A stretch of DNA of 13,902 bases from a virus (lineage: Duplodnaviria; Heunggongvirae; Uroviricota; Caudoviricetes): IMG/VR virus record IMGVR_UViG_2541047917_000005. One strand, 5' to 3'. Shown in pieces: positions 1-13,902 of the stretch; position 1 is the stretch's first letter; the number at the start of each line of letters is the position of its first letter. A program made the translations under genes and the position numbers. The notes beneath the pieces were generated by a model. It saw nothing but the letters and a program-made list of their open reading frames with translations, was not told the DNA's origin and searched no databases.

Positions 1-1239
1 ATGAGCAGGGCAATTCATAGACTTAGCGACACTCTTTTACGAAAATTAAGCGGATCACCAACCACAAAAAGCACCTTTTTTAATGATGGTGGCAACCTTA
101 GCGTAAGGCATTCAATCAATGGCCTGTTAACCTGGTATTTCACTTACAGGGCCGGAACTGGTAGGCAGATATCACCGGAACGTCTGAGGCTGGGCAATTA
201 TCCCGATCTGAGCCTGAAAGCTGCCAGGGAAAAAGCGGCACAGTGTCGCGCCTGGCTGGCTGAGGGGAAAAATCCGCGCTATGAACTTAATCATGCTGTA
301 CAGGATGCGTTAGCCCCCGTGACGGTTAAGGAAGCGCTCACTTACTGGCTTGAATCGTACGCAAAGGAAAAGCGCACTGACTACGAATCACTGAAAAGCC
401 GGATCAATAAACACATAATCAGCCAAATTGGCGCTTTGCCGTTGGAAAAATGCGAGCTACGGCACTGGTTGGCATGTTTTGACCAGATGGCAAAGCGAAG
501 CCCAGTATCTGCCGGATTTTTGCTACAGGTATGCAAACAGGCGCTTAAGTACTGCCGAAAACGACGATACGCAATCAGCAACGTTCTTGATGATATGGTT
601 GTCGGTGATGTGGGAAAAAAAGCAGAAGTGAGCGAGCGCGTACTAACAAACAAGGAGCTTGGGGAATTACTCCGCGCCCTGGATGACAAAATATTCCCGC
701 CATACTACAGCGCCCTAATTCGCCTCCTGATTGTTTTTGGATGCCGTACCACCGAGCTAAGGCGCTCTGAGGTGCAGGAGTGGGATTTTAAAGAAATGCT
801 CTGGACAGTACCGAAGGAGCACAGCAAAACGAAGGTCGCCATATTCAGGCCAATACCGGAAAACATTTTGCCGTTCGTCACGCAGCTGGTGGAGCAGAAC
901 AGACACACGAGCTTATTGCTTGGTGAACTGAAAGGACAATCTTCGGTAGCAGAGTACGGAAGAACAGCGCACAAACGAATTAATCAAGCCCCCTGGACGT
1001 TACACGATATCCGGCACACATTTACAACCATGCTGAACGATTTAGGCGTGGATCCGCATATTGTCGAGCAGCTTACAGCCCACCAGATGCCAGGGATGCA
1101 ACGAGTCTATAACCACTCCCGCTACCTTGATGCAAAACGTGATGCTCTTAATCTATGGGTAGACCGTCTCGAGCTTCTCCAGAACAATGATGAAAAAATC
1201 GTTGTTATGACCCCGCGAATTTACCCCCAAAATTCTTGA
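1..1239 (+). CDS. int: Tyrosine recombinase / integrase, P4-type
   Basis: 412-aa ORF. N-terminal region resembles the P4-integrase arm-binding domain (LSD..DGGNLSVR..YPDLSLKAAREKA). C-terminal region has the catalytic signature HDIRHTF...VYNHSRY. ATG sits exactly at the window edge, so the true start could lie upstream. Stop TGA 1237-1239. Confidence 0.9.
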   Translation: MSRAIHRLSDTLLRKLSGSPTTKSTFFNDGGNLSVRHSINGLLTWYFTYRAGTGRQISPERLRLGNYPDLSLKAAREKAAQCRAWLAEGKNPRYELNHAVQDALAPVTVKEALTYWLESYAKEKRTDYESLKSRINKHIISQIGALPLEKCELRHWLACFDQMAKRSPVSAGFLLQVCKQALKYCRKRRYAISNVLDDMVVGDVGKKAEVSERVLTNKELGELLRALDDKIFPPYYSALIRLLIVFGCRTTELRRSEVQEWDFKEMLWTVPKEHSKTKVAIFRPIPENILPFVTQLVEQNRHTSLLLGELKGQSSVAEYGRTAHKRINQAPWTLHDIRHTFTTMLNDLGVDPHIVEQLTAHQMPGMQRVYNHSRYLDAKRDALNLWVDRLELLQNNDEKIVVMTPRIYPQNS

Positions 1240-1658
1240 CAAATTACGGCTGTTTTTTCTTTAAGAGATTACAGCCGTGAATAGATCTTAGAATATCGGG
1301 GAATATCTGCAAATATCTTCTCTTTATATGTGTCAACTATCGAAAAAAATTGAAATGTCTTCTTCTGAGTTCTTATTCTCTGTTTCTTGATTGTTCCAAC
1401 ACCTGATGGTTTATCTATTTGTTTTTAATGATGTAATTCAGGTGTCATGCCAAATGACGACATTTTTTGTTGCGTCGCTTAAAAACTCGTGACACGATTT
1501 TAAACACTAACGAGCTTCTACGAACCTTAGCGAACAAAGCCTTTAGCAAGGTTGTGTTTTTAATTTAAGAGGTGAAAAAGAATCTAAGTAATATCCGATC
1601 TCATATATCTACAGCTAAGAGAAAAGTTTATATACGTAATTTTTATGTAGGTTTTTGT

Positions 1659-1868
1659 ATGCGTGAAATAAATGAAGATCGCGTAATCCGTGAGGATGAA
1701 TGTCGTAAGTTAACTGGAGTGTGCCGCACTACACGTTACGAACTGGAGAAAAAAGGGCGCTTTCCGTCACGTCTTAATCTGGGCGGTCGTTCTGTAGGGT
1801 GGCTGCTGTCCGAGGTTATGGAATGGGTTAAAAGCCGGGATCGCATTAATTCAGGTAAGGCAGTGTAA
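1659..1868 (+). CDS. alpA: AlpA-family helix-turn-helix transcriptional regulator
   Basis: 69-aa product MREINEDRVIREDECRKLTGVCRTTRYELEKKGRFPSRLNLGGRSVGWLLSEVMEWVKSR matches the AlpA/Phage_AlpA pattern (TG.srsTiY.l...G.FP..i.LG.rsVgW...Ev.eW). The ORF-track version starts at GTG 1572, which lies inside its own Shine-Dalgarno (aagaggtg) with no spacer; ATG 1659 gives the expected AlpA length. Confidence 0.8.
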   Translation: MREINEDRVIREDECRKLTGVCRTTRYELEKKGRFPSRLNLGGRSVGWLLSEVMEWVKSRDRINSGKAV

Positions 1869-1895
1869 AGGGGAGCATATGACACATAAAACAAA

Positions 1896-1915
1896 GGCGA
1901 CCGGGGGCGGTCGCC
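1896..1915 (-). terminator. Perfect 8-bp stem hairpin, terminator-like on the minus strand
   Basis: GGCGACCG-GGGG-CGGTCGCC at 1896-1915. On the minus strand it is followed by a T-rich run (TTTGTTTTAT, reverse complement of 1886-1895). On the plus strand it is followed by AATGGGAAAAC, which is not terminator-like. Confidence 0.4.
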
Positions 1916-2237
1916 AATGGGAAAACACTAAACATAAGCCCGAACATCATAGCGATTTGCTGGCTGGTGGGCAAATCCTGAGCGGTCCTGCAATTACAGG
2001 AACTACGGCATTGTCGCGGTTAGGTTGTGCTCAACTTTTTTTCACCTCTATATCGCAAGCGCGCCGTAATAAATCGCCTTTATCGCTTCCGCAAAGATCC
2101 TTTTTCTCGAAGCATGATTTTAAGAGAAAGGCGACGACAATTAATAAAACCGCACAGAGTTTCCAATTTATAAATTTTGACATCTTTTACCCCTATGATT
2201 GTCGCCATCGTTCTTCATGTTATGACGTGATTAATGA

Positions 2238-2417
2238 TTACTCGGATTCACTGGCCTTGCGCCGCTGGCGATATTCAACTTCTCGTTTTAATGCCGCAGT
2301 AACAAATTGCCCCGTACTTTCTCCAGGCATTTTTACCGCCTCAACATTGTTCATAACTTCATGCGGAACCCTTGCCGCAACGGTTTGTGATTTTGCGTTT
2401 ACTGCTTTTGTCGCCAT
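2238..2417 (-). CDS. Putative ribbon-helix-helix (CopG/Arc-like) DNA-binding protein; 59 aa, below the ORF-track length cut-off
   Basis: Hand translation of the minus strand: MATKAVNAKSQTVAARVPHEVMNNVEAVKMPGESTGQFVTAALKREVEYRQRRKASESE. Pattern of beta-strand (QTVAARVP), helix (HEVMNNVEAV), Gly turn, helix (FVTAALKREVEY) fits an RHH fold. GAGGGG Shine-Dalgarno lies about 10 nt upstream of the ATG at 2417. Palindromic operator-like repeats sit 50-100 bp upstream of it. The plus-strand frame over the same bases gives a compositionally implausible peptide. Confidence 0.45.
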   Translation of the reverse strand: MATKAVNAKSQTVAARVPHEVMNNVEAVKMPGESTGQFVTAALKREVEYRQRRKASESE

Positions 2418-2467
2418 GTTGTGTACCCCTCATAAAAAACAAATGCAGTATGCAGGAAAAAAAATAA

Positions 2468-2520
2468 GTGTTCAACACTTGACGTGTTCAACACCTGAGT
2501 TTAAATTGGTGTTCAACACC
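2468..2520. promoter_or_regulatory. Three perfect copies of the 11-bp palindrome GTGTTCAACAC overlapping a sigma70-like promoter (operator array)
   Basis: Exact copies at 2468-2478, 2484-2494 and 2509-2519; each is a dyad (GTGTT-C-AACAC). TTGACG (2479-2484) and TAAATT (2502-2507) are spaced 17 bp, so two copies bracket the -35 and the third lies just downstream of the -10. The region is divergent between the minus-strand RHH ORF and the plus-strand Icd-like start at 2617. Confidence 0.5.
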
Positions 2521-2616
2521 TTGTTGGCGCAAGGTGCAGAAACGACGAAACCCGGCAGTGAGCTAACACTAACCGGGCTTCTAACCACCAACGATAGAAA
2601 GCGTATCGAGGTAGCT

Positions 2617-3231
2617 ATGTTAAATCATACCACACACCCGCAAGGGCGGGATTCGCACAACCTGAATAAATACATCTGGCGTTTTATCGCCCTGAGCACG
2701 GCACAACCGCGCGTGATTACCATCGAGGCCACCAGCGAACAGGAAGCACGCCAGAAAAACCAGTTGATCGCCACTGCCAGCCAGGGCTATGATTTACCCG
2801 CACCAGCAAAATCTGGTGCCGGGATTGGCGTCCTGGAAATGTCAAAGGCGATATATGACGCGCCAGCGTCTTTTTTATCGTCCGCATTCGCTCACATCAA
2901 AGTTATGGTGGGCTGGGCGGGGGCTTCTTCGGAAGCGCCGGTTCCCTTTGACGCCGGTTACGCCAACCCCGTTCAGTCCACCGCCAGCGAAATTGGCGTT
3001 TCCTGCGGTGGAAATTCTTCACTGTCAAAGGAGGCTGCCAACATGGCTACTATCCCTACCCTCGTACATTCTCAAACTGCCTTTATCTGGCGCTTTATCA
3101 TCTTTGGCGCGTCAGAATCTCAAATCGTCCACGTAACCGCCTGGACGGAAGGCGAAGCGCGTAACCGTTGCCCGTCCGGTTGTGTCGCTGTATTCGCCGC
3201 CCGTATTCGTCAGGGGGTGAGTCATGCATAA
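2617..3231 (+). CDS. Icd-like (host cell division inhibitor-like) protein with two tandem Icd-like domains in one frame
   Basis: ATG 2617 preceded by GAGG (2608-2611). Two related segments: NKYIWRFIALSTAQPRVITIEATSEQEARQ and QTAFIWRFIIFGASESQIVHVTAWTEGEARN..AVFAARIRQGV, recognised from memory as the Icd-like family of P4-like islands. No stop codon separates the two copies. The stop-free frame actually extends from 1879, but that upstream part is judged non-coding. Confidence 0.5.
   Translation: MLNHTTHPQGRDSHNLNKYIWRFIALSTAQPRVITIEATSEQEARQKNQLIATASQGYDLPAPAKSGAGIGVLEMSKAIYDAPASFLSSAFAHIKVMVGWAGASSEAPVPFDAGYANPVQSTASEIGVSCGGNSSLSKEAANMATIPTLVHSQTAFIWRFIIFGASESQIVHVTAWTEGEARNRCPSGCVAVFAARIRQGVSHA
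3043..3231 (+). CDS. Second Icd-like copy as a possible independent cistron (alternative to the 2617 start)
   Basis: Near-consensus Shine-Dalgarno AAGGAGG (3028-3034) 8 nt before ATG 3043. 62-aa product MATIPTLVHSQTAFIWRFIIFGASESQIVHVTAWTEGEARNRCPSGCVAVFAARIRQGVSHA has a typical Icd-like size. Confidence 0.45.
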   Translation: MATIPTLVHSQTAFIWRFIIFGASESQIVHVTAWTEGEARNRCPSGCVAVFAARIRQGVSHA

Positions 3232-3451
3232 AATACCCTTTGATGTTCTTGTTCATTCTGAAAACGCATTAATCCGCGCAAAGGAAATGGACGCATTACT
3301 ACTTAAGTTAATTGATGTGCCGGAAAGTGGCGATGAATCTGATTCAATGATGTTTTCTGCCGTGCGTACGCTATTAACGCCTGTTATTAATGAATTAAAT
3401 ACATTGATGGCAATTCACGAGAATAATAAAGCGCAGCACACCGGAGAATAA
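3224..3451 (+). CDS. Hypothetical small protein (75 aa)
   Basis: ATG 3224 overlaps the upstream TAA (ATGCATAA) and is preceded by AGGGGG (3212-3217). Acidic, helical-looking sequence; no family recognised by eye. Confidence 0.55.
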   Translation: MHKIPFDVLVHSENALIRAKEMDALLLKLIDVPESGDESDSMMFSAVRTLLTPVINELNTLMAIHENNKAQHTGE

Positions 3452-3456
3452 AAAAC

Positions 3457-3756
3457 ATGAAAAATAAAAATTCTGGCTTTACCGCCAGCGGCCCTGCTCG
3501 TCCTGAATTTATGAACGGCGATATTTACCGCGATAAATATGGCGGCATGGTAACGATTAAAGGCGTGGCAGAACGGCGCATCACCTACGGTCGTGAAGGC
3601 TACGAATATGATTGCGTGATGCCTGTTTATCAGTTTCGGCGTGATTTTTCTCTGGTACAGGCAGCGCCCCGCAGTAAACCAACCAGCAGGGAGAAAGCAC
3701 GCGCCAATATTCAGGAAATAAAAAAGATGCTTAACGTATTCAGGGGTAAAAAATGA
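3457..3756 (+). CDS. Hypothetical protein (99 aa), translationally coupled to the primase/helicase
   Basis: ATG 3457 with GGAGA upstream. Its stop TGA overlaps the ATG of the next gene (ATGA at 3753-3756). No family recognised by eye. Confidence 0.55.
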   Translation: MKNKNSGFTASGPARPEFMNGDIYRDKYGGMVTIKGVAERRITYGREGYEYDCVMPVYQFRRDFSLVQAAPRSKPTSREKARANIQEIKKMLNVFRGKK

Positions 3757-5501
3757 AACTGGCACCGAACGTAAAAAAACAGCCACGCGGAATAAAACAC
3801 AAAGACACAGAGGTAATTATTTTCGCGGGTAGTGATGCCTGGTCGCACGCGAAACAATGGCAGGAGCAGGATGGCCCCGCATCCGGCGATAATGTGCCGC
3901 CTGTGTGGCTTGGGCCAAATCAGCTTGCCGAACTTGATGCACTGAAAATTGTTCCGGATGGAAAAAAACGCGTAAGGCTGTACCAGGCCGGAGAACTGGA
4001 TTTGGTGGAGACCAAAAAGATTGGTCAGAAGCTGGCGGCGGCAGATATTCAGGACGCAAATTTTTACCCCGAAGGAATGCACGTCCAGAAGTGTGAAAAC
4101 TGGCGGCGCTATCTGAATGCTGAGCGTGAAAATATTGCCGCAGGGCTTACCATGCCGGAGCAGAAAAATACGCAACTGGCACAAATGGCAGACAGTGAGC
4201 GCGCACAGATGCTTGCTGGTCGATTTGATGGCGTTTGTGTGCATCCGGAAAGTGAAATCGTTCACGTATGGCGCGGCGGGGTATGGTGTCCGGTCAGCAC
4301 AATGGAACTTAGCCGCGAAATGGTGGCGATCTATTCAGAGCACAGGGCCACTTTCAGCAAGCGCGTAATCAATAACGCCGTGGAAGCGTTAAAAGTTATT
4401 GCCGAACCAATGGGCGAGCCGTCCGGCGATTTGCTGCCGTTCGCCAATGGTGCGCTTGACCTGAAAACGGGGGAATTTTCCCCGCACACGCCGGAGAACT
4501 GGATCACCACGAACAACGGCATTGAGTACACGCCACCAGCACCAGGGGAGAACATCCGCGATAACGCGCCAAACTTTCATAAATGGCTTGAGCACGCAGC
4601 CGGAAAAGACTCGCGCAAGATGATGCGTATATGTGCCGCGCTGTACATGATTATGGCGAACCGGTACGACTGGCAGATGTTTATTGAGGCCACCGGAGAC
4701 GGCGGGAGCGGTAAAAGTACATTCACACACATCGCCAGCCTTCTGGCAGGGAAACAGAACACGGTGAGCGCGGAGATGACATCGCTTGATGATGCTGGTG
4801 GGCGTGCGCAGGTTGTCGGGAGTCGTCTTATCGTCCTGGCAGACCAGCCGAAATATACAGGCGAAGGCACGGGCATCAAGAAAATCACGGGCGGCGACCC
4901 CGTGGAAATCAACCCGAAATATGAAAAGCGTTTCACTACGGTAATCAGGGCGGTGGTGCTGGCGACCAATAACAACCCGATGATATTCACCGAACGGGCC
5001 GGAGGCGTGTCACGTCGTCGGGTTATTTTCCGCTTCGACAATATCGTAAGCGAGGCAGAAAAAGACAGGGAGCTACCGGAAAAGATTGCGGCTGAAATCC
5101 CTGTCATTATCCGCCGCTTGCTGGCGAACTTTGCCGACCCTGAAAAGGCACGGGCTTTACTCATTGAACAGCGAGACGGTGATGAAGCACTGGCGATAAA
5201 GCAGCAGACGGATCCGGTTATTGAGTTTTGCCAGTTCCTTAACTTTCTGGAAGAAGCACGCGGCCTGATGATGGGCGGCGGCGGTGACTCTTCCAGGTAC
5301 ACGACCAGAAACAGCCTTTACCGCGTCTATCTGGCGTTTATGGCGTATGCAGGCAGGAGCAAACCGCTAAACGTAAATGACTTTGGCAAGGCTATGAAGC
5401 CAGCCGCGAAAGTTTACGGACATGAATATATTACGCGGAAAGTTAAGGGAGTAACGCAGACTAACGCAATAACAACAGACGATTGCGACGCGTTTTTATA
5501 A
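3753..5501 (+). CDS. DNA primase/helicase of the phage/plasmid primase P4 family (D5_N-like region plus SF3 P-loop NTPase)
   Basis: 582 aa. Walker A GDGGSGKST encoded at 4695-4721. Upstream region LLPFANGALDLKTGEFSPHTPENWITTNNGIEYTP is typical of the P4-alpha / D5 N-terminal-like domain. AGGGG Shine-Dalgarno 6 nt upstream of the ATG. The N-terminal ~200 aa (VIIFAGSDAWSH...) could be toprim-like but is not confidently assigned. Confidence 0.9.
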   Translation: MKLAPNVKKQPRGIKHKDTEVIIFAGSDAWSHAKQWQEQDGPASGDNVPPVWLGPNQLAELDALKIVPDGKKRVRLYQAGELDLVETKKIGQKLAAADIQDANFYPEGMHVQKCENWRRYLNAERENIAAGLTMPEQKNTQLAQMADSERAQMLAGRFDGVCVHPESEIVHVWRGGVWCPVSTMELSREMVAIYSEHRATFSKRVINNAVEALKVIAEPMGEPSGDLLPFANGALDLKTGEFSPHTPENWITTNNGIEYTPPAPGENIRDNAPNFHKWLEHAAGKDSRKMMRICAALYMIMANRYDWQMFIEATGDGGSGKSTFTHIASLLAGKQNTVSAEMTSLDDAGGRAQVVGSRLIVLADQPKYTGEGTGIKKITGGDPVEINPKYEKRFTTVIRAVVLATNNNPMIFTERAGGVSRRRVIFRFDNIVSEAEKDRELPEKIAAEIPVIIRRLLANFADPEKARALLIEQRDGDEALAIKQQTDPVIEFCQFLNFLEEARGLMMGGGGDSSRYTTRNSLYRVYLAFMAYAGRSKPLNVNDFGKAMKPAAKVYGHEYITRKVKGVTQTNAITTDDCDAFL

Positions 5502-5512
5502 TTTTTGGCAAT

Positions 5513-5745
5513 TGCTGTCTACCTTGTCTACCTGATTACATAAAAGTTGTTTTAATTCAGTGTATTAATTTAGGTAGACAGCTTTTTTTTACTGTCTACA
5601 AGCTGTCTACCTTGTCTACCTGTTTTTGTAGCCAGCCGGAGGGATGAGTAGACATCAGGTAGATAGCGATTTTTTACTGTCTACTTCCATTAAACCCGCG
5701 TCATTACTGGCCTGAGCATCTATCAGGTAGACAGAGTAGACAAGG
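5513..5745. repeat. Putative replication origin: about 11 iterons with core TGTCTAC(C) in both orientations, flanking an AT-rich stretch
   Basis: Plus-orientation copies at 5515-5523, 5524-5532, 5592-5600, 5603-5611, 5612-5620, 5677-5685. Inverted copies (GGTAGACA) at 5573-5582, 5648-5654, 5658-5665, 5726-5734, 5736-5745. AT-rich segment 5533-5572. Lies immediately 3' of the primase/helicase gene. Confidence 0.6.
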
Positions 5746-5790
5746 TGGGGGTAGGTCCAAAACTTTTTAAACGAGGGGGTAAAAATAAAA

Positions 5791-6048
5791 ATGCACACAT
5801 CAGGAAAATTTAACAATCAGAAGAAATCACATAACCGCGCCATTGACCTTACAGAGCACTGGCTGAGGGTGGCGATAAAAATCATCGACCGCAACGCGGG
5901 AGAAGGATACGCGAAAGCACATCCTGAACTAATAAGCGCATTCATGACCACAGCGGCGGCAAACTTTGCCACGCTGACAGAACGGGAGATTGCCGAAGCG
6001 GAACAGGTAACAACCATCAACGTTAAAACCGGAGAGGTGGAATCATGA
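5791..6048 (+). CDS. Hypothetical small protein (85 aa)
   Basis: ATG 5791 with GAGGGGG upstream (5773-5779). Stop overlaps the SSB start (ATGA). No family recognised by eye. Confidence 0.5.
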   Translation: MHTSGKFNNQKKSHNRAIDLTEHWLRVAIKIIDRNAGEGYAKAHPELISAFMTTAAANFATLTEREIAEAEQVTTINVKTGEVES

Positions 6049-6455
6049 CAGCACAGATAGCCGCTTACGGGCGGCTGGTGGCTGACCCGCAGTTAAAGAC
6101 CACCAGCAAGGGCACACAAATGGCTATGGCAAGCATGGCGGTCCCCCTGCCGTGCAATCAGGCAGATGACGGACAGGCGACGATGTGGTTATCCGTCCTG
6201 GCGTTTGGCAGACAGGCCGACGCACTGGCAAAACACCACAAAGGCGAGCTGGTGAGCGTGGCGGGTAACATGCAGGTAAGCCAGTGGACAGGCCAGAACG
6301 GCGAAACGCGGCAGGGCTGGCAGGTTATTGCAGACAGCGTAATCAGTGCCAGAACGGCGCGACCTGGTGGGAGCCGACGCAAGACCACAGGCACACAGGG
6401 TAATCAGCCACCAGCGGGAGGCGATGACCCTTACGGTGATGATATTCCGTTCTGA
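6045..6455 (+). CDS. ssb: Single-stranded DNA-binding protein
   Basis: 136 aa. OB-fold-like N-terminal region (GRLVADPQLKTTSKG...WLSVLAFGRQADALAKHHKGELVSVAGNMQVSQWTGQNGETRQGWQVIAD), a Gly/Pro-rich linker and the hallmark C-terminal acidic tail ending DDIPF. GGAGAGG Shine-Dalgarno before ATG 6045. Confidence 0.85.
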   Translation: MTAQIAAYGRLVADPQLKTTSKGTQMAMASMAVPLPCNQADDGQATMWLSVLAFGRQADALAKHHKGELVSVAGNMQVSQWTGQNGETRQGWQVIADSVISARTARPGGSRRKTTGTQGNQPPAGGDDPYGDDIPF

Positions 6456-6465
6456 GAGGGTGACG

Positions 6466-6723
6466 ATGGTACATGACCGCATAGCGGAAGAACTCGAGGC
6501 GAAAGGCTTTTACCGGAGAGCGTCGGCGCGATGGGGTGAAGTCATGCTACTGGTGGAGACAGACAAGGAACGGGAGCACATCACGATGCGACGGCTGGAA
6601 TGTTGCAGAAAATCGACAAGGCCAGCACTCGGGCCGGACAATTTCAGCGATATTAAAAAAGCCGCTGATCGTGTTTATGCTGAAATGGGATTAGATAAAT
6701 TAAAGGGGGAAACATGCCAGTAA
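6466..6723 (+). CDS. PerC-family-like transcriptional regulator
   Basis: 85-aa product MVHDRIAEELEAKGFYRRASARWGEVMLL... resembles the PerC/Pch family motif (AEeLEakG.yRRAa.RW.eVm), recalled from memory. ATG 6466 is 5 nt after GAGGG. The ORF-track version starting at 6346 is a 5' extension that overlaps ssb. Confidence 0.6.
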   Translation: MVHDRIAEELEAKGFYRRASARWGEVMLLVETDKEREHITMRRLECCRKSTRPALGPDNFSDIKKAADRVYAEMGLDKLKGETCQ

Positions 6724-6974
6724 CCACAGAGGAAATTAAACGACACCGCGAATTATTCGGCCTTGAACATCCGGCCCACACGACAACGGAGCGTTATCGC
6801 CAGCACCTGGCGGCGGGGGCGATATTCTGGGTTGATCATCATGGTTTTTTACGCAGCACGCTTTCCGGTGAAATTCTGGCGGCTGGTCCTGAACAGATTG
6901 ATGCGCTCATCGCATATCTGGAAAAGGTGAAGCCCCGCACAGTGCAATCAGTACCACCGGAAGACGTTAATTAA
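6714..6974 (+). CDS. Hypothetical protein (86 aa)
   Basis: ATG 6714 preceded by AAGGGGGA; overlaps the PerC-like stop. Followed directly by a strong terminator. No family recognised by eye. Confidence 0.5.
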   Translation: MPVTTEEIKRHRELFGLEHPAHTTTERYRQHLAAGAIFWVDHHGFLRSTLSGEILAAGPEQIDALIAYLEKVKPRTVQSVPPEDVN

Positions 6975-6981
6975 TGGCCCA

Positions 6982-7007
6982 GCCCTGGTTTAACCAGGGC
7001 TTTTTTT
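6982..7007 (+). terminator. Rho-independent terminator closing the early/replication module
   Basis: GCCCTGG-TTTAA-CCAGGGC stem-loop (6982-7000) followed by TTTTTTT (7001-7007), 8 nt after the TAA at 6972-6974. Confidence 0.7.
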
Positions 7008-7129
7008 GTCAGCTTTTGTAAATTATTTGTGCGTGGTTGTTCGTGGTTGTTCAGCGGCATGGCTGGCTTATTTTATCAGGCCCGAACCGTGGTTATTCTC
7101 GCCACTGTTGCCAGGACGCTGGGACCATT

Positions 7130-7168
7130 TTCCCGCCTGTTAATCTCATCAGCGTTAACAGGCGGGAA
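7130..7168. promoter_or_regulatory. Perfect 14-bp inverted repeat about 90 bp upstream of the capsid gene
   Basis: TTCCCGCCTGTTAA (7130-7143), 11-nt spacer, TTAACAGGCGGGAA (7155-7168). Not followed by a T-run. A tandem 10-bp direct repeat CGTGGTTGTT x2 lies at 7032-7051 in the same leader. Confidence 0.3.
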
Positions 7169-7257
7169 GCCTGCATCGGTGTGCATTTCTTTTTGTTCTC
7201 GTACCGTGAGTCTTGCCGCGTCCTGGTGTTTTCCTCTTTGCATCAGGACTTTTTTTT

Positions 7258-8427
7258 ATGCCGAGAATTATCGAATTGCGCCAGCAGAAAACCGCCATCA
7301 AAAATCAGATGCGCGACATGCTGGAGAACGCGGAAAAAGAAAACCGCAGCCTTAACGACGCCGAGGGCGCAAAATTTGACGAATTACGCGCTAAAGCTGA
7401 ATCCCTCGATAAAGACATTTCCCGCCTTGAAGCCGTTGCCGACGAAGAGCGCAGCAAGCCAGGTAAAGCCAGCCAGACCACTGACCCCGCAGAACTTCGC
7501 AACTACATCGTAACGGGTGACGTTCGCTCATTATCCACCACCACCAACGGCGGCAAGGACGGTGGTTATACCGTTATCCCTGAGCTTGATCGCGAGGTTA
7601 TGCGGTTACTGAGTGATGAAAGCGTCATGCGAATGATTGCGACGGTGAAAACGGCGAAATCAAACGAATACCAGAAACTGGTTTCCACAGGTGGCGCAAC
7701 GGTGGGGCGTGGCACTGAGGGCAACAAGCGAACCGAAACAGAAACCCCGAAAGTTGAGCGCGTAAGCATCAAACTTAACCCGATCTATGCCTACCCGAAA
7801 ACCACGCAGGAAATCCTGGATTTTTCAGAAGTGGATGTGCTGGGCTGGTTATCGTCTGAAATCGCCGACACGTTCGCCACGACCGAAGAAGATGATTTTG
7901 TAAATGGTGACGGTACTGGCAAGCCGAAGGGTTTCCTGAATTACACCCGTGATACCAACAACGACAAAGCCCGCGCCTTTGGCACCATTGAAAAAATGGT
8001 TACAACAACCGACGCCATTACAGCGGACGAACTGATCGACATCCTCTACAAGCTGAAAGCGAAATACCGTAAGAACGCCGTATGGGTGATGAACTCGAGT
8101 ACAGCGGCAGCATTGCAGAAGCTGAAAAACCAGAGCGGTGATTACGTATGGCGTGACAGCCTCAAAGAGGGCGCACCTGACACATTGCTGGGCCGTCCTG
8201 TTTATTACCTGGAAAGTATGCCGGACATCGGCAAAGGCAAAACGCCGCTGGCTGTCGGTGACTTTAAGCGCGGTTATTTCATCGTTGACCATGAAACGGG
8301 GATCCGTACCCGACCGGACAACATTACAGAGCCGGGTTTCTACAAGGTACACACGGACAAATACATCGGCGGCGGGGTTGTTGACTCCCGCGCGATAAAA
8401 GTCCTCGAGATGAAAAACGGCGGTTAA
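7258..8427 (+). CDS. Major capsid protein, HK97 family
   Basis: About 389 aa from ATG 7258. N-terminal coiled-coil delta-domain-like segment (ELRQQKTAIKNQMRDMLENAEKENRSLNDAEGAKFDELRAKAESLDKDISRLE) followed by an HK97-fold-like body (…GDFKRGYFIVDHETGIRTRPDNITEPGFYKVHTDKYIGGGVVDSRAIKVLEMK). The track start at 7213 is a TTG extension; no clear Shine-Dalgarno for either start. Confidence 0.9.
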   Translation: MPRIIELRQQKTAIKNQMRDMLENAEKENRSLNDAEGAKFDELRAKAESLDKDISRLEAVADEERSKPGKASQTTDPAELRNYIVTGDVRSLSTTTNGGKDGGYTVIPELDREVMRLLSDESVMRMIATVKTAKSNEYQKLVSTGGATVGRGTEGNKRTETETPKVERVSIKLNPIYAYPKTTQEILDFSEVDVLGWLSSEIADTFATTEEDDFVNGDGTGKPKGFLNYTRDTNNDKARAFGTIEKMVTTTDAITADELIDILYKLKAKYRKNAVWVMNSSTAAALQKLKNQSGDYVWRDSLKEGAPDTLLGRPVYYLESMPDIGKGKTPLAVGDFKRGYFIVDHETGIRTRPDNITEPGFYKVHTDKYIGGGVVDSRAIKVLEMKNGG

Positions 8428-8435
8428 CAGAAAAA

Positions 8436-8462
8436 GGGGCTAAAAAGCCCCTTTGGTGTTTT
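8436..8462 (+). terminator. Hairpin plus T-rich tract just after the capsid gene (possible partial terminator)
   Basis: GGGGCT-AAAA-AGCCCC (8436-8451) followed by TTTGGTGTTTT (8452-8462), 8 nt after the capsid stop codon. Confidence 0.45.
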
Positions 8463-8477
8463 ATGGGTGAAAAAAAT

Positions 8478-9038
8478 ATGAAAAAGAGCATGGAAATCCG
8501 GTCATCAGAAATCACCACCAGCGGAGCCAGTACGCTGACGGGTTACGTTGTTCGCTGGAATAACCTTTCTGATCTGCTATGGGGTGAGTTTTACGAAAAA
8601 TTCCAGCGGGGGGCGTTCAGTGAGTGGCTGGCGGCGGGTAATGACGTTCGCGGCCTGTATGAGCATGACCACAGCATGTTACTGGGGCGCACCCGTTCCG
8701 GCACGCTGAAACTGGAAGAGGACGACACAGGGTTACGCTTTGAACTGACCCCACCGGATACCAGCACAGGGCGGGACGTTATCGAACTGGTTAAACGTGG
8801 TGATATATCCGGCATGAGCTTTGGCTTTCGTTCCCGTAAGGATGTATGGGATACCACAACAGATCCATGCGTGCGCACCGTGCTGGTGGCGGAACTGTAC
8901 GAAATTACCGTTACATCCGTACCGGCTTACCCTGATTCCGGCGTGGATCTGGCCCGCCGTTCCCTGTATGAGCAGCACCCCGAAAAAATGCCACGCGCGG
9001 ATAATCGCCGCTGGTGGGCGGATTTAGCGGGGGTGTGA
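8478..9038 (+). CDS. Prohead maturation protease, HK97 family (S78/U35-like)
   Basis: Motifs GYVVRWNNLSD, YEHDHSMLLGRT, GLRFELTPPDT, ISGMSFGF are consistent with HK97 gp4-type proteases. Start uncertain between ATG 8463, 8478 and 8490; 8478 has GGTGA 7 nt upstream. Stop TGA 9036-9038. Confidence 0.85.
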   Translation: MKKSMEIRSSEITTSGASTLTGYVVRWNNLSDLLWGEFYEKFQRGAFSEWLAAGNDVRGLYEHDHSMLLGRTRSGTLKLEEDDTGLRFELTPPDTSTGRDVIELVKRGDISGMSFGFRSRKDVWDTTTDPCVRTVLVAELYEITVTSVPAYPDSGVDLARRSLYEQHPEKMPRADNRRWWADLAGV

Positions 9039-9039
9039 T

Positions 9040-10254
9040 ATGTGGCCTTTCAGACGAAAACAAGAGCATCGCAGCCTTACGCTGGATGAATTTATGGCGC
9101 TGGCTGGCACATCGAACACGGGGGCGGGTGAGTACGTATCATCGGGGACAGCGGAATCACTCCCCGCCGTCATGAACGCCGTCACGGTCATCTCTGAGGC
9201 GGTGGCTACTATGCCATGCTACCTGTACCTGGTACGCAATGAGAAGGGGAAGGAGGCCCGCGAGTGGCTTGATTCTCATCCGGTCGATCATATCCTCAAC
9301 GAGCGCCCGAACGCGTGGCAGACGCCCTATCAGTTTAAGCGAATGATGGTCCGCCACTGCCTGTTAAACGGTAATGCTTATGCGGTGATTCAGTGGGGGC
9401 GTGATGGTTTTCCGGTGGCTTTGCACCCTTACCCGCCGCAGTCGGTGAATGTTGAGCAGACAGGGGAACATAACTGGCGTTACCGCATCACTGACGCTTA
9501 CAGCGGAAACACCCGCAACTATTTACCGTGGGAGGTTCTCCACCTTCGTTACTCCACGGATGACGGCTTTATGGGGCGCTCACCTGTGACCATCTGCCGC
9601 GAATCGCTGGGGCTTGGGCTGGCCCAACAGCGCCACGGCGCGAGCGTGATGCGTGATGGCATGATGGCAGCAGGGGTTATCACGTCAGGCGAATGGCTGG
9701 ACGGCGTGAAGGGCAAACAGGCATTAGCCGCACTGGAACGCTACAAAGGAGCCAGAAACGCCGGAAAAACGCCCATTCTTGAAGGGGGTATGAGCTATCA
9801 GCAGCTTGGCATGAGTAACCAGGATGCTGAATGGCTGGCCTCCCGTCGCTTCACCATTGAAGACATCGCCCGAATGTTCAACGTCTCGCCGATTTTTCTG
9901 CAGGAATACAGCAACAGCACCTACAGCAATTTCAGCGAGGCAAGCCGCGCGTTTCTGACCATGACGATGCGCCCGTGGCTGGCGAACTTTGAGCAGCAGA
10001 TAAAAAATGCTTTGCTGGTGGCCTCGCCTGTACCTGGTATCCGGTATCAGGTGGAGTTTGACAGCGCGGACCTGTTACGGGCCACACCTGGCGAACGCTT
10101 TGCCACCTATGAACGCGGCATCAAGTCCGGCGTTATGTGCCCGAACGAAGCCCGCGAACGTGAGGGATTATCGCCGCGTGATGGTGGCGATGAGTTCAGC
10201 CAGGCCTGGAAACAGGAGATCGAAGTAAAGGACGATAAAGAGGGCAAATCATGA
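9040..10254 (+). CDS. Portal protein, HK97 family
   Basis: 404 aa with portal-like core (…NGNAYAVIQWGRDG…WEVLHLRY…MRPWLANFEQQI…). ATG 9040 is 1 nt after the protease stop, preceded by GGGGGTG. Confidence 0.9.
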   Translation: MWPFRRKQEHRSLTLDEFMALAGTSNTGAGEYVSSGTAESLPAVMNAVTVISEAVATMPCYLYLVRNEKGKEAREWLDSHPVDHILNERPNAWQTPYQFKRMMVRHCLLNGNAYAVIQWGRDGFPVALHPYPPQSVNVEQTGEHNWRYRITDAYSGNTRNYLPWEVLHLRYSTDDGFMGRSPVTICRESLGLGLAQQRHGASVMRDGMMAAGVITSGEWLDGVKGKQALAALERYKGARNAGKTPILEGGMSYQQLGMSNQDAEWLASRRFTIEDIARMFNVSPIFLQEYSNSTYSNFSEASRAFLTMTMRPWLANFEQQIKNALLVASPVPGIRYQVEFDSADLLRATPGERFATYERGIKSGVMCPNEAREREGLSPRDGGDEFSQAWKQEIEVKDDKEGKS

Positions 10255-10589
10255 GAGCGGGGAGCATGAGGGATCGCATTGTCATCATGAGCGCGAAACT
10301 TTCCCGCCTCCCTTCCGGTGCAATGAAAAGCACATGGGAGGATGTTGCCACCGTATGGGCGGAGGTGAAAGGGATCAGCGGACGGGAACGCATGACCGCA
10401 GGTGCAGAAACGGCACAGGCAACCGTAAGAGTCTGGATCCGTTTTCGTGGGGATGTTACGGCATCCAGCCGGATACGGGTACTCACGGGGGCTTATTCCG
10501 GCAATGAGCTTGATATTGTTGGCCCCCCCGTTCCCGACGGTAAAAGGACTCGTCTGGAAATTCTTTGTAAAACAGGTGCGCCACGATGA
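10251..10589 (+). CDS. Head closure / head-tail adaptor protein
   Basis: 112 aa. Pattern R..I.....SGAM...WEDVATVWAEV...SGRE...AGAE.A....V.IR.R.DV.....R....G.....L.I.G...P..DG.R.RLEILC matches the phage head-closure (head_tail_join) family. ATG overlaps the portal stop (ATGA); AGAGGG upstream. Confidence 0.7.
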   Translation: MRAGSMRDRIVIMSAKLSRLPSGAMKSTWEDVATVWAEVKGISGRERMTAGAETAQATVRVWIRFRGDVTASSRIRVLTGAYSGNELDIVGPPVPDGKRTRLEILCKTGAPR

Positions 10590-10882
10590 CAGCAGAATTA
10601 ATCACCCTGGAAGAAGTGAAACTCCATTGCCGCATTGATGGCAATGAGGAAGACCAGTTAATCAGCGGATACATCGCCGCCGCGCTTGAGGTGTGCCAGA
10701 AACACATCGGCAGGCGCTTTGATGACGGGCTGGAGTTCACGCCAGCCATAAAGATTGGCTGCATGATGTACGTGTCGCAACTGTACGAATACAGGGCCAC
10801 GGTCGGGGATGCAGACACAAAAGAAATCCCGCTGGCTGTAGGGATGCTCTGGTCGGTTTATCGTGATGTGGGGGTGTACTGA
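10586..10882 (+). CDS. gp6-like head-tail connector protein
   Basis: 98 aa. N-terminal LITLEEVKLHCRIDGNEEDQLISGYIAAA is typical of the phage gp6-like connector family. ATG overlaps the upstream stop. Confidence 0.7.
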   Translation: MTAELITLEEVKLHCRIDGNEEDQLISGYIAAALEVCQKHIGRRFDDGLEFTPAIKIGCMMYVSQLYEYRATVGDADTKEIPLAVGMLWSVYRDVGVY

Positions 10883-11322
10883 TGCCGTGGCAACCATTAA
10901 GGCGATGCACTGAGCCGGGCTGTAATAAGCGCGTGAAGTCCGGCAAGTGTGAAGAGCACAGGCGGGCTGCATGGCGTGCAGAGGATGCCAGACGGGGACA
11001 CCGCCGCGCACGTGGGTATTCCCGACAGTGGGACAAATACCGCGCCATGTACCTGAAAAAAAATCCGTTATGTGTGCGTTGTCTGGCTGAGGGTATTTAT
11101 ACGCCAGCCTTTGTGGTGGATCACATTATCCCCATCAATGGTGGCGGTGATGTTCTCTTCTGGCCTGAGTGGAATCACCAGGCATTGTGCCAGACGTGCC
11201 ACAACCGTAAGACGACGCGGGAAGATCCCGCCACGAAAGCAAACCGTAAAGCGGGCATGTATCGCGAGCAGGAAGAACGGGCGGCACACCGTAACGACTG
11301 GATGTATGGCGATGATGACTGA
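10882..11322 (+). CDS. HNH endonuclease (packaging-associated)
   Basis: 146 aa. Cys-rich N-terminus (CTEPGCN...GKCEEH) and an HNH core (VVDHIIPINGGGD...NHQALCQTCHNRKT). Lies immediately upstream of terS/terL, as in HK97-like cos packaging modules. Confidence 0.9.
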   Translation: MPWQPLRRCTEPGCNKRVKSGKCEEHRRAAWRAEDARRGHRRARGYSRQWDKYRAMYLKKNPLCVRCLAEGIYTPAFVVDHIIPINGGGDVLFWPEWNHQALCQTCHNRKTTREDPATKANRKAGMYREQEERAAHRNDWMYGDDD

Positions 11323-11491
11323 ACAGGAACAAAACAGGCTGATTCGTGGACTGATAAGGCAGCATGACGCATGGAAGACACAGGAGACAGGGCACAAAGC
11401 CAACAGGACAGGGCGCACAGAACGCACCACCGCGAAGCGATTAACCGACCGTGACCGCGAGGTCATGGAATGTTTTCGCAATCGCTGGTGA
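11306..11491 (+). CDS. Possible small ORF (61 aa) overlapping the HNH 3' end
   Basis: ATG 11306 in the +1 frame relative to HNH; product MAMMTEQEQNRLIRGLIRQHDAWKTQETGHKANRTGRTERTTAKRLTDRDREVMECFRNRW. No convincing Shine-Dalgarno. May be translated or may simply mark the packaging-site region. Confidence 0.2.
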   Translation: MAMMTEQEQNRLIRGLIRQHDAWKTQETGHKANRTGRTERTTAKRLTDRDREVMECFRNRW

Positions 11492-11610
11492 GGCCGTCAG
11501 AGGGGGTGGGGGTGGTTTTCAGGACGAAACCGTCCCTGCCGGACACCGACCGCCTCCTCAAATTTTTATGCACGGGAATTTTTTGAAAAATAATCTGACG
11601 AAAAATAAGC

Positions 11611-11967
11611 ATGGCAAGACCACCGAAAGCCCCCGCCTACCTGGATGACATCGCCGTGAAGCAGTGGCGGGAAAAATCGCGGCAGCTTGCGGAACGGGGA
11701 GACCTGACCCCCGCCGACTGGAGCAATCTGGAACTGTATTGTGTCAACTACTCCATTTACCGGAAAGCCGTCGCAGACCTTGCGGCGCGCGGGTTCAGCA
11801 TTGTTAACAGTCAGGGCGGCGAGAGCAGAAACCCCGCATTAAGCGCAAAATCCGACGCTGAAAGAGTGATGATAAAAATGGCCTCCTTGCTCGGTTTTGA
11901 CCCGATAAGCCGCCGTAAAAATCCACCGGAAACAGAAGAAGAGGACGAGCTTGACCGCCTGGAATAA
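11611..11967 (+). CDS. terS: Terminase small subunit (P27-family-like)
   Basis: 118 aa (MARPPKAPAYLDDIAVKQWREKSRQLAERGDLTPADWSNLELYCVNYSIYRKA…) resembles P27-family small terminases. Directly upstream of, and overlapping, terL. Confidence 0.85.
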   Translation: MARPPKAPAYLDDIAVKQWREKSRQLAERGDLTPADWSNLELYCVNYSIYRKAVADLAARGFSIVNSQGGESRNPALSAKSDAERVMIKMASLLGFDPISRRKNPPETEEEDELDRLE

Positions 11968-13612
11968 GTACGCAGAAGACGTAAAAACGGGCAAAATTCC
12001 GGCCTGTAAACGGCTGAAACAGGCCGTTAAACGGTACTTTTCGGACCTTGAAAGCCCCCTTTACACGTTCGATCGTGAGGTTGTGGAGCGGTTTATTGCC
12101 TTTTCCAGGGTGTGCGCGCACGTAAAAGGGCCGATGCGTGGCAGACCCATTGAGCTGGAGCCGTGGCAGCAGTTCGCCTTTGCGTGCATCCTCGGCTTTA
12201 AGGTTAAGGCCACCGGACGGCGCAAATACACGAGCGCCTTTATCGAAGTGCCGCGCAAAAATGCGAAATCCACGACCGCCGCGATTCTGGCTAACTGGTT
12301 TTTGATTATGGAGAACGGTCAGCAGGATATCTACACCGCAGCGGTGAGCCGTGACCAGGCGCGGATCGTCTTTGATGATGCGCGTCAGATGTGCCTTTTA
12401 TCCCGACCGTTACGCAGGCGGGTGAATATTCAGGCGCATAAGGTGATACACCCGAAAACCAACAGCCTGTTAAAGCCACTGGCAGCAAAAGCGGCAACCA
12501 TTGAGGGGACAAACCCGAGTCTTGCCATTGTGGATGAATATCACCTGCACCCAGACAACGGGGTTTATTCCGCACTTGATATGGGGATGGGGGCGCGTCC
12601 GGAGGGGCTGTTATTTGCCATCACCACATCGGGGAGCAACGTTGTTTCAGCCTGTAAACAACACTATGACTATTGCTGTCAGATACTGGATGGTGAAGAG
12701 ATGAACGAATCCATGTTCGTTCTGATTTACGAGCTGGATGATGAAAGCGAGGTTGACGATCCGGCGATGTGGATAAAGGCGAATCCAAATATCGATGTTT
12801 CCGTCGATCGTGAAAAACTGGCCTCAACCATCCAGAAAGCGCGGGGTATTCCGTCGCAGTGGGTGGAAATGCTCACCAAGCGATTCAATATCTGGTGTCA
12901 GGGGGCTACGCCGTGGATGGGTAACGGTGCATGGGCGGAGTGCGCCGGAACGTTCACGGAGGAAGATTTACACGGCCAGGAGTGTTACGCGGGGCTGGAT
13001 TTATCATCCACAAGCGATATTTCCAGCGTGTGCTATGCCTTTCCGGTCGGTAAAACCATTATGCTGGTTTCCCGTCATTATCTGCCGGAGTTCCAGCTAC
13101 AGAACCCCGCCAATAAAAACCGCGCTGTCTATCGTCAGTGGGCTAAAGCGGGCTGGATACGCACAACGCCTGGCGACTGCATTGATTACGACCGGATCAG
13201 AGATGACATCATGCAGGACGCGGAGAATTTCAATATCAGGCTGGTGGGTTTCGATACATGGAACGCCACGCACCTGAGGACGCAGCTACAGGGCGCGGGA
13301 TTTGAGGTGGAGCCGTTCCCGCAAACATACCTTCGTTTCAGTCCGGCGGCGAAATCGTTCGAAGTTTTTGTTAACCGGAAGGTGATTGTGCATCGTGGTG
13401 ATCCGGTGCTGGCCTGGTCAATGAGTAATGTTGTGATGCAGAGTGACGCGAACGCCAATATCAAGCCGAACAAGAAAAAATCATCCAACAAGATAGACCC
13501 GAGCGTTGCGGCGCTGATGGCGTTTGGCACATTCCAGGCAGAGCATGAAGATTTTGCCTTTGATATAAGCGACAGCCACAAAGAGCGGCTTGCGGCGTTT
13601 GATGGGGTATGA
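11951..13612 (+). CDS. terL: Terminase large subunit
   Basis: 553 aa. Typical TerL N-terminus (WNKYAEDVKTGKIPACKRLKQAVKRYFSDLE), P-loop region (EVPRKNAKSTTAA), Walker-B-like LAIVDEYH and a C-terminal nuclease-like region. Apparent TTG start at 11951 with GAGGA 5 nt upstream; 17-nt overlap with terS. Confidence 0.9.
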   Translation: MTAWNKYAEDVKTGKIPACKRLKQAVKRYFSDLESPLYTFDREVVERFIAFSRVCAHVKGPMRGRPIELEPWQQFAFACILGFKVKATGRRKYTSAFIEVPRKNAKSTTAAILANWFLIMENGQQDIYTAAVSRDQARIVFDDARQMCLLSRPLRRRVNIQAHKVIHPKTNSLLKPLAAKAATIEGTNPSLAIVDEYHLHPDNGVYSALDMGMGARPEGLLFAITTSGSNVVSACKQHYDYCCQILDGEEMNESMFVLIYELDDESEVDDPAMWIKANPNIDVSVDREKLASTIQKARGIPSQWVEMLTKRFNIWCQGATPWMGNGAWAECAGTFTEEDLHGQECYAGLDLSSTSDISSVCYAFPVGKTIMLVSRHYLPEFQLQNPANKNRAVYRQWAKAGWIRTTPGDCIDYDRIRDDIMQDAENFNIRLVGFDTWNATHLRTQLQGAGFEVEPFPQTYLRFSPAAKSFEVFVNRKVIVHRGDPVLAWSMSNVVMQSDANANIKPNKKKSSNKIDPSVAALMAFGTFQAEHEDFAFDISDSHKERLAAFDGV

Positions 13613-13902
13613 CGAGAATGAGCGAAACCGAACTACTAAAAATAATCCGCCGCGTTACCGGAATCAGCCCGGCAGCAGGCAAACGTGAGGCCACGCAGCC
13701 GGAAACTGTCACCGCTGAAAATTACGCGCGTGTGGTGGCTGAGGTGATGCGCCGTGATGGTATAGAACTTAATGGCGTGGATATGCGCAACATACGAACC
13801 AGAGTTCTTGAGTTGCTGGCCTACCGTCGCCGCGTGGAGATGTATCGGGAGAAGGAGAAAATAACGTACCACTGGAAGAAGCCGGAGCGGTTGCGGCGGT
13901 AA
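13609..13902 (+). CDS. Hypothetical protein (97 aa), stop at the last base of the window
   Basis: ATG 13609 overlaps the terL stop (ATGA); alternative ATG at 13618. Charged, helical-looking; no family recognised by eye. Confidence 0.45.
   Translation: MTRMSETELLKIIRRVTGISPAAGKREATQPETVTAENYARVVAEVMRRDGIELNGVDMRNIRTRVLELLAYRRRVEMYREKEKITYHWKKPERLRR

Follow-up and report, generated by a model that had tools for sequence, protein, structure and literature searches.

The 13,902-nucleotide stretch analysed here (IMG/VR virus record IMGVR_UViG_2541047917_000005, hereafter the window) very probably represents 92% of a capsid-forming phage-inducible chromosomal island (cf-PICI) that measures 15,120 bp and is inserted between cspD and clpS of Escherichia coli, a close syntenic relative of the island EcCIEDL933. 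An earlier note, made from the letters of the window alone, had proposed a tail-less, capsid-encoding integrative satellite of this kind whose ends lie outside the window, and had suggested extending the sequence both ways to find att direct repeats, which often sit at the 3′ end of a transfer RNA (tRNA) gene. By looking up the integrase and large terminase subunit (TerL) proteins in public assemblies, we located the E. coli contig KE702059.1 (GCA_000460835.1), which is 100% identical to the window over positions 158,786-172,687 and provided 10 kb of flank on each side.

Both flanks proved to be made of core genes, with hcp, ybjE, aqpZ, ybjD, ybjX, macA, macB and cspD on the left (named from their Pfam families) and clpS, clpA, infA, aat, cydC, cydD and trxB on the right. 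Neither 10-kb flank contains genes for a tail, tape measure or baseplate or for lysis. The junctions were set by comparison with K-12 MG1655, in which the region between cspD and clpS carries the uninterrupted (empty) site. The K-12 match on the left flank extends up to attL (ATAGATGATAGTTATTTATCA, window -187 to -167) and resumes on the right flank at attR (ATAAATGATAGTTATCTATCA, window 14,933-14,953, about 1.03 kb downstream), so that both lie outside the window, as anticipated. The two sites form a 21-bp imperfect direct repeat with 19 of 21 positions identical. They delimit an element of 15,120 bp, followed directly by clpS, and the int gene begins 167 bp inside attL, which places the integrase at one island end. 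The expected association with a tRNA gene did not hold: attB is intergenic and reaches into the 3′ end of the small open reading frame (ORF) yljB, the window contains no tRNA that could serve as integration target, and the nearest one, tRNA-Ser beyond clpA, is unrelated to att. When the full text of the literature was searched for PICIs linked to cspD or clpS, just an unrelated reagent name was returned.

The coding sequence of the window is one long run of plus-strand genes, the right half of which forms a head and packaging operon. The HK97-type profiles on which the earlier proposal depended were recovered, and the eight proteins of the head and packaging set all scored at or above Pfam gathering scores. 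They comprise a major capsid protein of HK97 fold bearing a delta domain at its N-terminus (7258-8427; Phage_capsid 2.8e-72), a prohead serine protease (8463-9038; Peptidase_S78 1.2e-47), a portal protein (9040-10254; Phage_portal 8.2e-92), a head closure protein (Hc1, 10251-10589; Phage_HCP 1.4e-23, phrog_25), a gp6-like head-tail adaptor or connector (Ad1, 10586-10882; Phage_connect_1 1e-10, phrog_40), an HNH endonuclease acting as terminase accessory factor (10882-11322; HNH 1.9e-9), a small terminase subunit (TerS) of the P27/Terminase_4 type (11611-11967; Terminase_4 1.3e-23) and TerL (11951-13612; TerL_ATPase 7.4e-26, TerL_nuclease 3.8e-51), all on the plus strand. The capsid protein matches the solved structure PDB 9gyi at E = 8.7e-173, an entry 100% identical to the EcCIEDL933 capsid, and its first 70 delta-domain residues are nearly identical to those of that protein. 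A scan of every ORF of the window against Pfam or PHROGs revealed no tail, holin or lysin family, and the absence of tail, baseplate, fibre, holin and endolysin genes stated in the earlier note also holds for the rest of the att-bounded element.

Two smaller plus-strand genes accompany this set. The first, encoding 61 amino acids (11306-11491), is the positional homologue of EcCIEDL933 gene 1792 by 82% identity and gene order, the numbering being obtained by counting from capsid gene 1786; mutation of gene 1792 severely reduced the transfer of EcCIEDL933 (10.1101/2022.09.08.507074; 10.1101/2025.02.11.637232). The second, encoding a 97-amino-acid protein (orf97, 13609-13902; phrog_1561 3.5e-49), is conserved at the right end of cf-PICIs and has homologues at the same position in classical PICIs.

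For comparison, EcCIEDL933, the cf-PICI prototype studied by experiment, was taken from the genome of E. coli O157:H7 EDL933 (NZ_CP008957.1, ~1,680,329-1,695,300), where it sits between roxA and phoQ rather than between cspD and clpS. From int to the last small ORF, its genes follow the same order as those of the window, and the head and packaging proteins share 51-100% amino acid identity: 100% for TerS, 96.5% for the portal, 96.4% for TerL, 94.8% for the protease, 83.6% for HNH, 81.7% for the 61-amino-acid protein, 74.5% for the adaptor, 68.8% for the capsid and 50.9% for the head-closure protein. Outside this set, identity reached 76.4% for the integrase (Int), 66% for AlpA, 82% for the single-strand DNA-binding protein (SSB), 74% for PerC, 84% for the DUF4222 protein, 83% for an 85-amino-acid protein and 74% for the 97-amino-acid protein. 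At the nucleotide level, the packaging module is 85.5% identical over 6.9 kb and the putative cos region 91%. The two islands are of similar size, 15.4-15.5 kb for EcCIEDL933 versus 15.1 kb here.

The neck proteins of this module differ strongly from their EcCIEDL933 counterparts. Head-closure and adaptor proteins set tail specificity in cf-PICIs (10.1101/2025.02.11.637232), and since the pair encoded here is only 51% and 74% identical to that of EcCIEDL933, a different set of tail donors is expected. The closest phage head-closure proteins are 58-64% identical, which is too distant to name a helper. In one variant at cspD-clpS with the same Int (loci L006 and L011), a single 100-amino-acid connector lies between portal and HNH, with no Phage_HCP gene.

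Head and packaging genes of HK97 type would also be found in a decayed prophage whose tail and lysis genes had been deleted and which was no longer mobile, and cryptic prophages are numerous in E. coli genomes. We nevertheless consider such a remnant very unlikely. The att repeats are intact, the ORFs are full length relative to a functional prototype, and the compact layout of about 15 kb from int to orf97 recurs at cspD-clpS, uvrB-bioD and roxA-phoQ. The front end is of PICI type, with AlpA, a D5-type replicase and iterons in place of a lambdoid immunity and replication region. Moreover, phage records hardly contain the packaging module at all: a megablast search of 50,697 such records with the 6.9-kb head module retrieved 4 of them, with at most 27% coverage and ~75% identity, and the best match was a 16.5-kb record described as an 'induced prophage'. 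This rarity fits the published finding that the gene repertoires of cf-PICIs are distinct from those of phages (10.1101/2022.09.08.507074).

Comparison with HK97 and other HNH-dependent cos phages (HK106, Stx-type lambdoid prophages) likewise sets the island apart from a complete HK97-like prophage. These phages share its head and packaging protein families, the same HNH-cos-TerS-TerL logic and a similar cos architecture. In contrast, the island lacks tail, lysis and lysogeny-switch genes, its DNA has very little similarity to any phage record, and the 15.1-kb element ends 1.03 kb past its last ORF. The order of the head module also differs, being capsid-protease-portal here and portal-protease-capsid in HK97.

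The cf-PICI assignment agrees with the published description of the class. The cfPICI detection model of SatelliteFinder is built on 11 core components and forbids tails and holins, elements with all components being termed Type A (PMC10085698). When Pfam calls were set against this model description, all 11 core components were present, corresponding to Type A, and the existing detection tool would pick up this element. Its length of 15,120 bp falls within the range of the class (~10-16 kb), it is att-bounded with the integrase at one end, its front end combines AlpA with a D5-type replicase and an iteron cluster immediately downstream, and no tail, holin or lysis gene occurs across the whole element. 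The published census counted 969 cfPICIs, found in 13% of Enterobacteriaceae genomes (PMC10085698).

Some of the comparisons weigh against a simple transfer of the EcCIEDL933 biology to this island. The capsid maturation site (window 7528-7560, residues ~91-101) reads STTTNGGKD, as against STGVPAD in EcCIEDL933, and the motif reported for EcCIEDL933 and HK97 is SxGxxAD. The replicase can be aligned to its EcCIEDL933 counterpart over the first 161 residues only, the latter enzyme being of DUF927 type. Lastly, helper dependence, capsid size and tail use are extended to this element from a relative with a capsid 69% identical and a head-closure protein 51% identical; helper induction, small capsids, self-packaging and tail dependence have been shown only for EcCIEDL933, EcCIGN02175 and KpCIDSM30104 (10.1101/2022.09.08.507074; 10.1101/2025.02.11.637232). 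Still, the ORFs show no sign of decay, since they align full length to the prototype (over those first 161 residues for the replicase), and the sequence holds nothing that contradicts the cf-PICI reading, which is supported by the gene-for-gene EcCIEDL933 order and by the presence of 11 of 11 core components.

Related islands are common. Some part of the window matched 2,269 of the 5,426 genomes in the complete E. coli genome collection, and in the index of a public assembly collection the integrase occurred in 182 blocks and TerL in 115. The closest complete-genome relative is the island of strain ZH063 (NZ_CP014522.1, 823,851-837,775), with 95.6% nucleotide identity over 93% of the window; the IAI39 and CE10 islands are also among the closest. 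The portal, protease, adaptor pair, HNH and TerS proteins of the ZH063 island are identical to those of the window. This island sits between uvrB and bioD, at a related core (GATGACAGTT versus GATGATAGTT here), and its Int is 97% identical. One integrase type therefore appears to serve two attB sites.

On the inner side of both island ends, three or four TTGTTCGnnn repeats at 10-bp spacing are followed by two copies of GGTGTAGTyAAT. The 10-bp-period repeats occupy positions -161 to -59 and 14,809-14,835, both outside the window, and the same arm repeats are shared by the ZH063 island (locus L001, 7,800-8,000 and 22,600-22,800). This composite suggests the layout expected for the arm-type Int sites and directionality-factor sites of a P4-family attP. 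A motif shared with both att arms is also present upstream of the capsid gene, as 2.6 tandem copies of TTGTTCGTGG on the plus strand (7027-7052), and this copy was found only in relatives with the same capsid variant. The idea that the TTGTTCG repeats are AlpA sites coupling excision to activation of the head operon was not supported, because no such copy precedes the capsid gene in relatives that have the same Int and AlpA and a different capsid variant.

The front end of the window contains the integration, regulation and replication genes, all on the plus strand unless stated. Pfam supported the gene families named in the earlier note, from integrase, AlpA, helicase and SSB to the capsid-to-TerL set. 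The tyrosine integrase (1-1239) is of P4 type with an arm-binding N-terminal domain (Phage_integrase 5.4e-19, Arm-DNA-bind_3 7.7e-16) and is followed by an AlpA-family regulator (1659-1868; Phage_AlpA 2.1e-16). In E. coli PICIs, AlpA is the helper-induced activator of the island cycle (PMC6092414; 10.1101/2022.09.08.507074), and mutation of alpA abolished both induction and transfer of EcCIEDL933 (10.1101/2022.09.08.507074). Further on, genes for a conserved 75-amino-acid protein (3224-3451; phrog_2196 9.5e-10) and a DUF4222 protein (3457-3756; DUF4222 2.5e-23) lead to the replication initiator (3753-5501); the DUF4222 gene precedes the replicase in all relatives examined.

The replication initiator had been described as a P4-alpha-type primase/helicase. 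Its D5/P4-alpha-type helicase part was confirmed by Pfam (D5_N 1.9e-14, DUF5906 3.4e-10, Pox_D5 1.6e-5), which found this part only and did not detect a primase domain as such. Directly 3′ of this gene, a putative replication origin (5516-5742) combines A/T-rich stretches with ten TGTCTAC iterons in both orientations. All ten copies of the motif in the window fall within this interval, against 0.71 expected by chance, and none of 200 shuffles reached 10 copies, which bears out the iteron origin of the earlier note.

Beyond the origin, the early region continues with genes for the conserved 85-amino-acid protein (5791-6048; phrog_1231 2e-48), SSB (6045-6455; SSB 1.3e-16), a transcriptional activator of the PerC family encoded shortly before the head operon (6466-6723; PerC 7.4e-36) and an 86-amino-acid protein (6714-6974; phrog_1957 1e-24). 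A terminator-like hairpin, with a 9-bp stem including 6 GC pairs and then TTTTTTT (6981-7001, plus strand), separates these early genes from the head operon. In the L006/L011 variant, a ProQ-domain gene occupies the position of PerC. The ten uncharacterised ORFs gave no defence-system match in PADLOC.

Classical PICIs (EcCICFT073 type, for example those of NCTC9112 and CNR85I8 at cspD-clpS) occupy this att site too and have a front end of the same type, sharing int, alpA, an Icd-like gene, the DUF4222 gene, the replicase, SSB and PerC with the window. Unlike the present island, they lack portal, protease, adaptors, HNH and TerL and use the terminase and capsids of the helper. According to the published PICI model (PMC10085698), a PICI must not contain portal or adaptor components; the present island encodes a portal, an adaptor, a closure protein and TerL.

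Between alpA and the 75-amino-acid gene, a mechanical ORF spanning 1879-3231 (450 codons) was rejected as spurious. It does not correspond to one protein, because it contains a minus-strand ribbon-helix-helix (RHH) gene, a divergent promoter with repeats, two RNA genes and two Icd-like ORFs, and because the composition of its N-terminal translation is not protein-like. The RHH gene (2238-2417, minus strand) encodes a small DNA-binding protein of 59 amino acids of the YlcI/YnfO family (NCBIfam YlcI_YnfO_N 2.2e-16); it is divergent from the early operon and has a homologue annotated in strain ZH063. Downstream of it, a tentative 50-amino-acid peptide with one hydrophobic helix was recognised by translation (2031-2183, minus strand), for which no family match was found. 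A strong terminator-like hairpin on the minus strand (1915-1896) closes this gene pair (2417-2031), which could represent a regulator with a membrane peptide or a toxin-antitoxin-like accessory module. In other variants, two small minus-strand genes are called at a comparable position, and one of the two encodes a DUF3950 protein (locus L006, 11,979-12,410).

The divergent promoter region contains three operator-like repeats, GTGTTCAACACyTGA (2468-2520), of which the tandem repeat at 2468-2498 is accompanied by a third copy identified by eye. On the plus strand follow a first Icd-like ORF (2617-2799; phage_ICD_like 3.2e-10), whose 3′ limit is uncertain as the frame continues through the RNA genes, an isrK-type RNA ending in a terminator hairpin and U-run (2800-2876; Rfam RF01394, 75.1 bits against a gathering threshold of 50, E = 3e-16), a C4-type antisense RNA of the P1/P7 c4 class (2901-2988; Rfam RF01695, 82 bits against a gathering threshold of 45, full-length model) and a second Icd-like ORF of 62 amino acids preceded by AAGGAGG (3043-3231; NCBIfam phage_ICD_like 3.4e-15). 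Judged from these matches, the isrK/C4/Icd arrangement ahead of the replication genes is P1 immI-like (c4-icd). A Pfam Phage_ASH match (residues 307-398 of the ORF, window 2797-3073) covers exactly the isrK and C4 RNA genes and probably reflects translated RNA-gene sequence, not a protein. Rfam also identified the C4 RNA and the c4-a1b1 target motif in the ZH063 island, and did not find the isrK/C4 pair in EcCIEDL933 or three other relatives.

This C4/CI-class antisense RNA upstream of the replication genes, together with the P4-type integrase, the AlpA/Vis-like regulator and the D5/alpha-type helicase, recalls satellites of the P4 kind, which redirect the capsid assembly of a P2-type helper and make no heads of their own. 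That the element is such a satellite is extremely unlikely: it encodes the complete capsid, portal and terminase set that P4 lacks, and its synteny is with EcCIEDL933, not with P4. Nor was any ORF recognisable as Sid, Psu, Delta or Epsilon in the general family scans, in which each ORF either matched a different family or had no match, and which included no dedicated search for P4 proteins.

A putative cos of the island was placed at 11,492-11,610 on the plus strand, between the 61-amino-acid gene and terS, because this stretch is conserved in five islands and its layout resembles the joined ends of HK97. Its G-run is followed by GACCGCCTCCTCAAA and, up to terS, by A/T-rich sequence, and it shows 95% mean column identity across the five islands, including EcCIEDL933. 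In the joined HK97 termini, as in the putative island site, the G-run is followed ~35-45 nt on by the junction (candidate GACCGCCTCCTCAAA|T in the island versus GACCGCCGCCAAA|G at the HK97 terminus) and an A/T-rich stretch extends up to terS. The ends of the packaged DNA are predicted near window position 11,560 (...CCTCCTCAAA|TTTTT).

A conserved site of this kind also bears on whether the head module might serve, in the manner of a gene transfer agent (GTA), to package random host DNA. After the cf-PICI capsid, the next-best solved structures for the capsid protein are indeed the Rhodobacter GTA capsids 6tb9 and 6tba (E ~8e-52), a similarity that corresponds to generic HK97-fold homology. 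To our knowledge, GTAs have no integrase or replication genes and encode their tails. The present element has its own integrase, att sites and replicon, a TerS-HNH-TerL set of cos type and the conserved cos-like site, and a GTA-like function is extremely unlikely.

The life cycle that we propose for this cf-PICI follows mostly what is known of EcCIEDL933 and of E. coli PICIs in general. EcCIEDL933 builds small capsids of its own, packages no DNA other than itself and depends on phages for tails alone (10.1101/2022.09.08.507074), its T=4 capsids being 47.5-nm shells that fit ~15.5 kb (10.1101/2025.02.11.637232). A helper phage would turn on alpA, and AlpA would activate the early operon. Acting within the 21-bp att repeat, Int would then recombine the island out of the chromosome, and the D5-type helicase-primase and SSB would replicate the circle from the TGTCTAC iterons to give concatemers. 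Expression of the head operon would yield HK97-fold proheads built from the delta-domain capsid protein, the S78 protease and the portal, which in the prototype are small (T=4, ~15 kb). TerS, TerL and HNH would cleave at the cos that the island itself carries immediately 5′ of terS and load the heads with DNA, the neck being finished by the head-closure and adaptor proteins. Lysis by the helper would free tail-less filled heads, which should become infectious only after joining phage-made tails.

No credible ORF was found in the 1.03 kb that separate the window end from attR. This right end of about 1 kb folds far better than shuffled sequence (z of -10.2 and -8.8 on the two strands), and its ORF-less portion at 13,903-14,480 (locus L012, 11,953-12,530) forms about ten consecutive hairpins. 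Rfam gave nothing at gathering threshold for the right end and one chance-level match at E < 1; its assignment to a known RNA was therefore rejected. From the orf97 stop codon onward, a 48-nt unit (GGTAACnnGyTGAnAyTT followed by a variable hairpin) is repeated in about three copies, and the same unit is present in three to four copies in EcCIEDL933. The right end as a whole is a mosaic that shares pieces with the corresponding end of many E. coli PICIs, including classical ones.

Near attR and outside the window, this mosaic includes a cassette of ~230 bp (window ~14,484-14,716; locus L012, 12,534-12,766) that aligns at 79-80% identity with the interval between HNH and terS (cos) in Stx-type lambdoid phages. 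Its conserved blocks are a G-run, GGACACCGCGCCCCCTCTCACGCAGAG and four ATGTTAAC repeats, while the spacers have diverged, and the cassette is bordered by AAAAA(A/T)TCCGG repeats. Together with the isrK/C4 RNA pair, it distinguishes this element from EcCIEDL933, which lacks the cassette and in which Rfam does not find the pair; the cassette is also absent from the ZH063 island, whose right-end non-coding region is different. By contrast, the 1,058-bp right end of the NCTC9112 classical PICI at the same att site, cassette included, is 99.8% identical. A lambda-type cosN (GGGCGGCGACCT) was sought by eye in the right end, and only a partial GGGCGGC was observed.

Helper-type cos sites are a known trait of classical E. 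coli PICIs (PMC6092414). It is possible, and in our view rather doubtful, that the cspD-clpS cf-PICI lineage has two packaging entry sites, its own cos and the cassette ~3 kb downstream. If the cassette is functional, packaging could proceed either through the island's terminase into its own small heads or, as in classical PICIs, through the terminase of a resident phage into phage heads, and the island would be a functional hybrid of two satellite strategies, that of cf-PICIs and that of classical PICIs. Equally, the cassette may be a non-functional relic of modules swapped with a classical PICI, since it is shared at 99.8% identity with the one at the same att site.

This phage-type cos cassette is the only feature of the island that might teach something new. 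In other respects, the element is an ordinary member of an already known family, as the family, its mechanism, its capsid structure and a genomic census have all been published. The cf-PICI family was reportedly described in 2022-2023, and work on other members between 2022 and 2025 is said to have established that its tail-less, DNA-filled heads join the tails of different phages and move DNA between species. It is this ability to take tails from different phages, with the resulting transfer of DNA across species, that makes cf-PICIs matter, and the window adds one more uncharacterised and common member to them. Its practical value is small and lies in the exact ends of the cspD-clpS islands and in a predicted cos site; in addition, its adaptor pair is a natural variant usable for testing the rules of tail specificity.

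Two observations concern the host context beyond the island. Downstream of clpA, a CRISPR repeat was identified (Rfam CRISPR-DR4; locus L012, 15,929-15,956), and one strain carries a type I-F cas1/cas2-3/csy1 cluster downstream of clpA (locus L008, 16,610-21,662).

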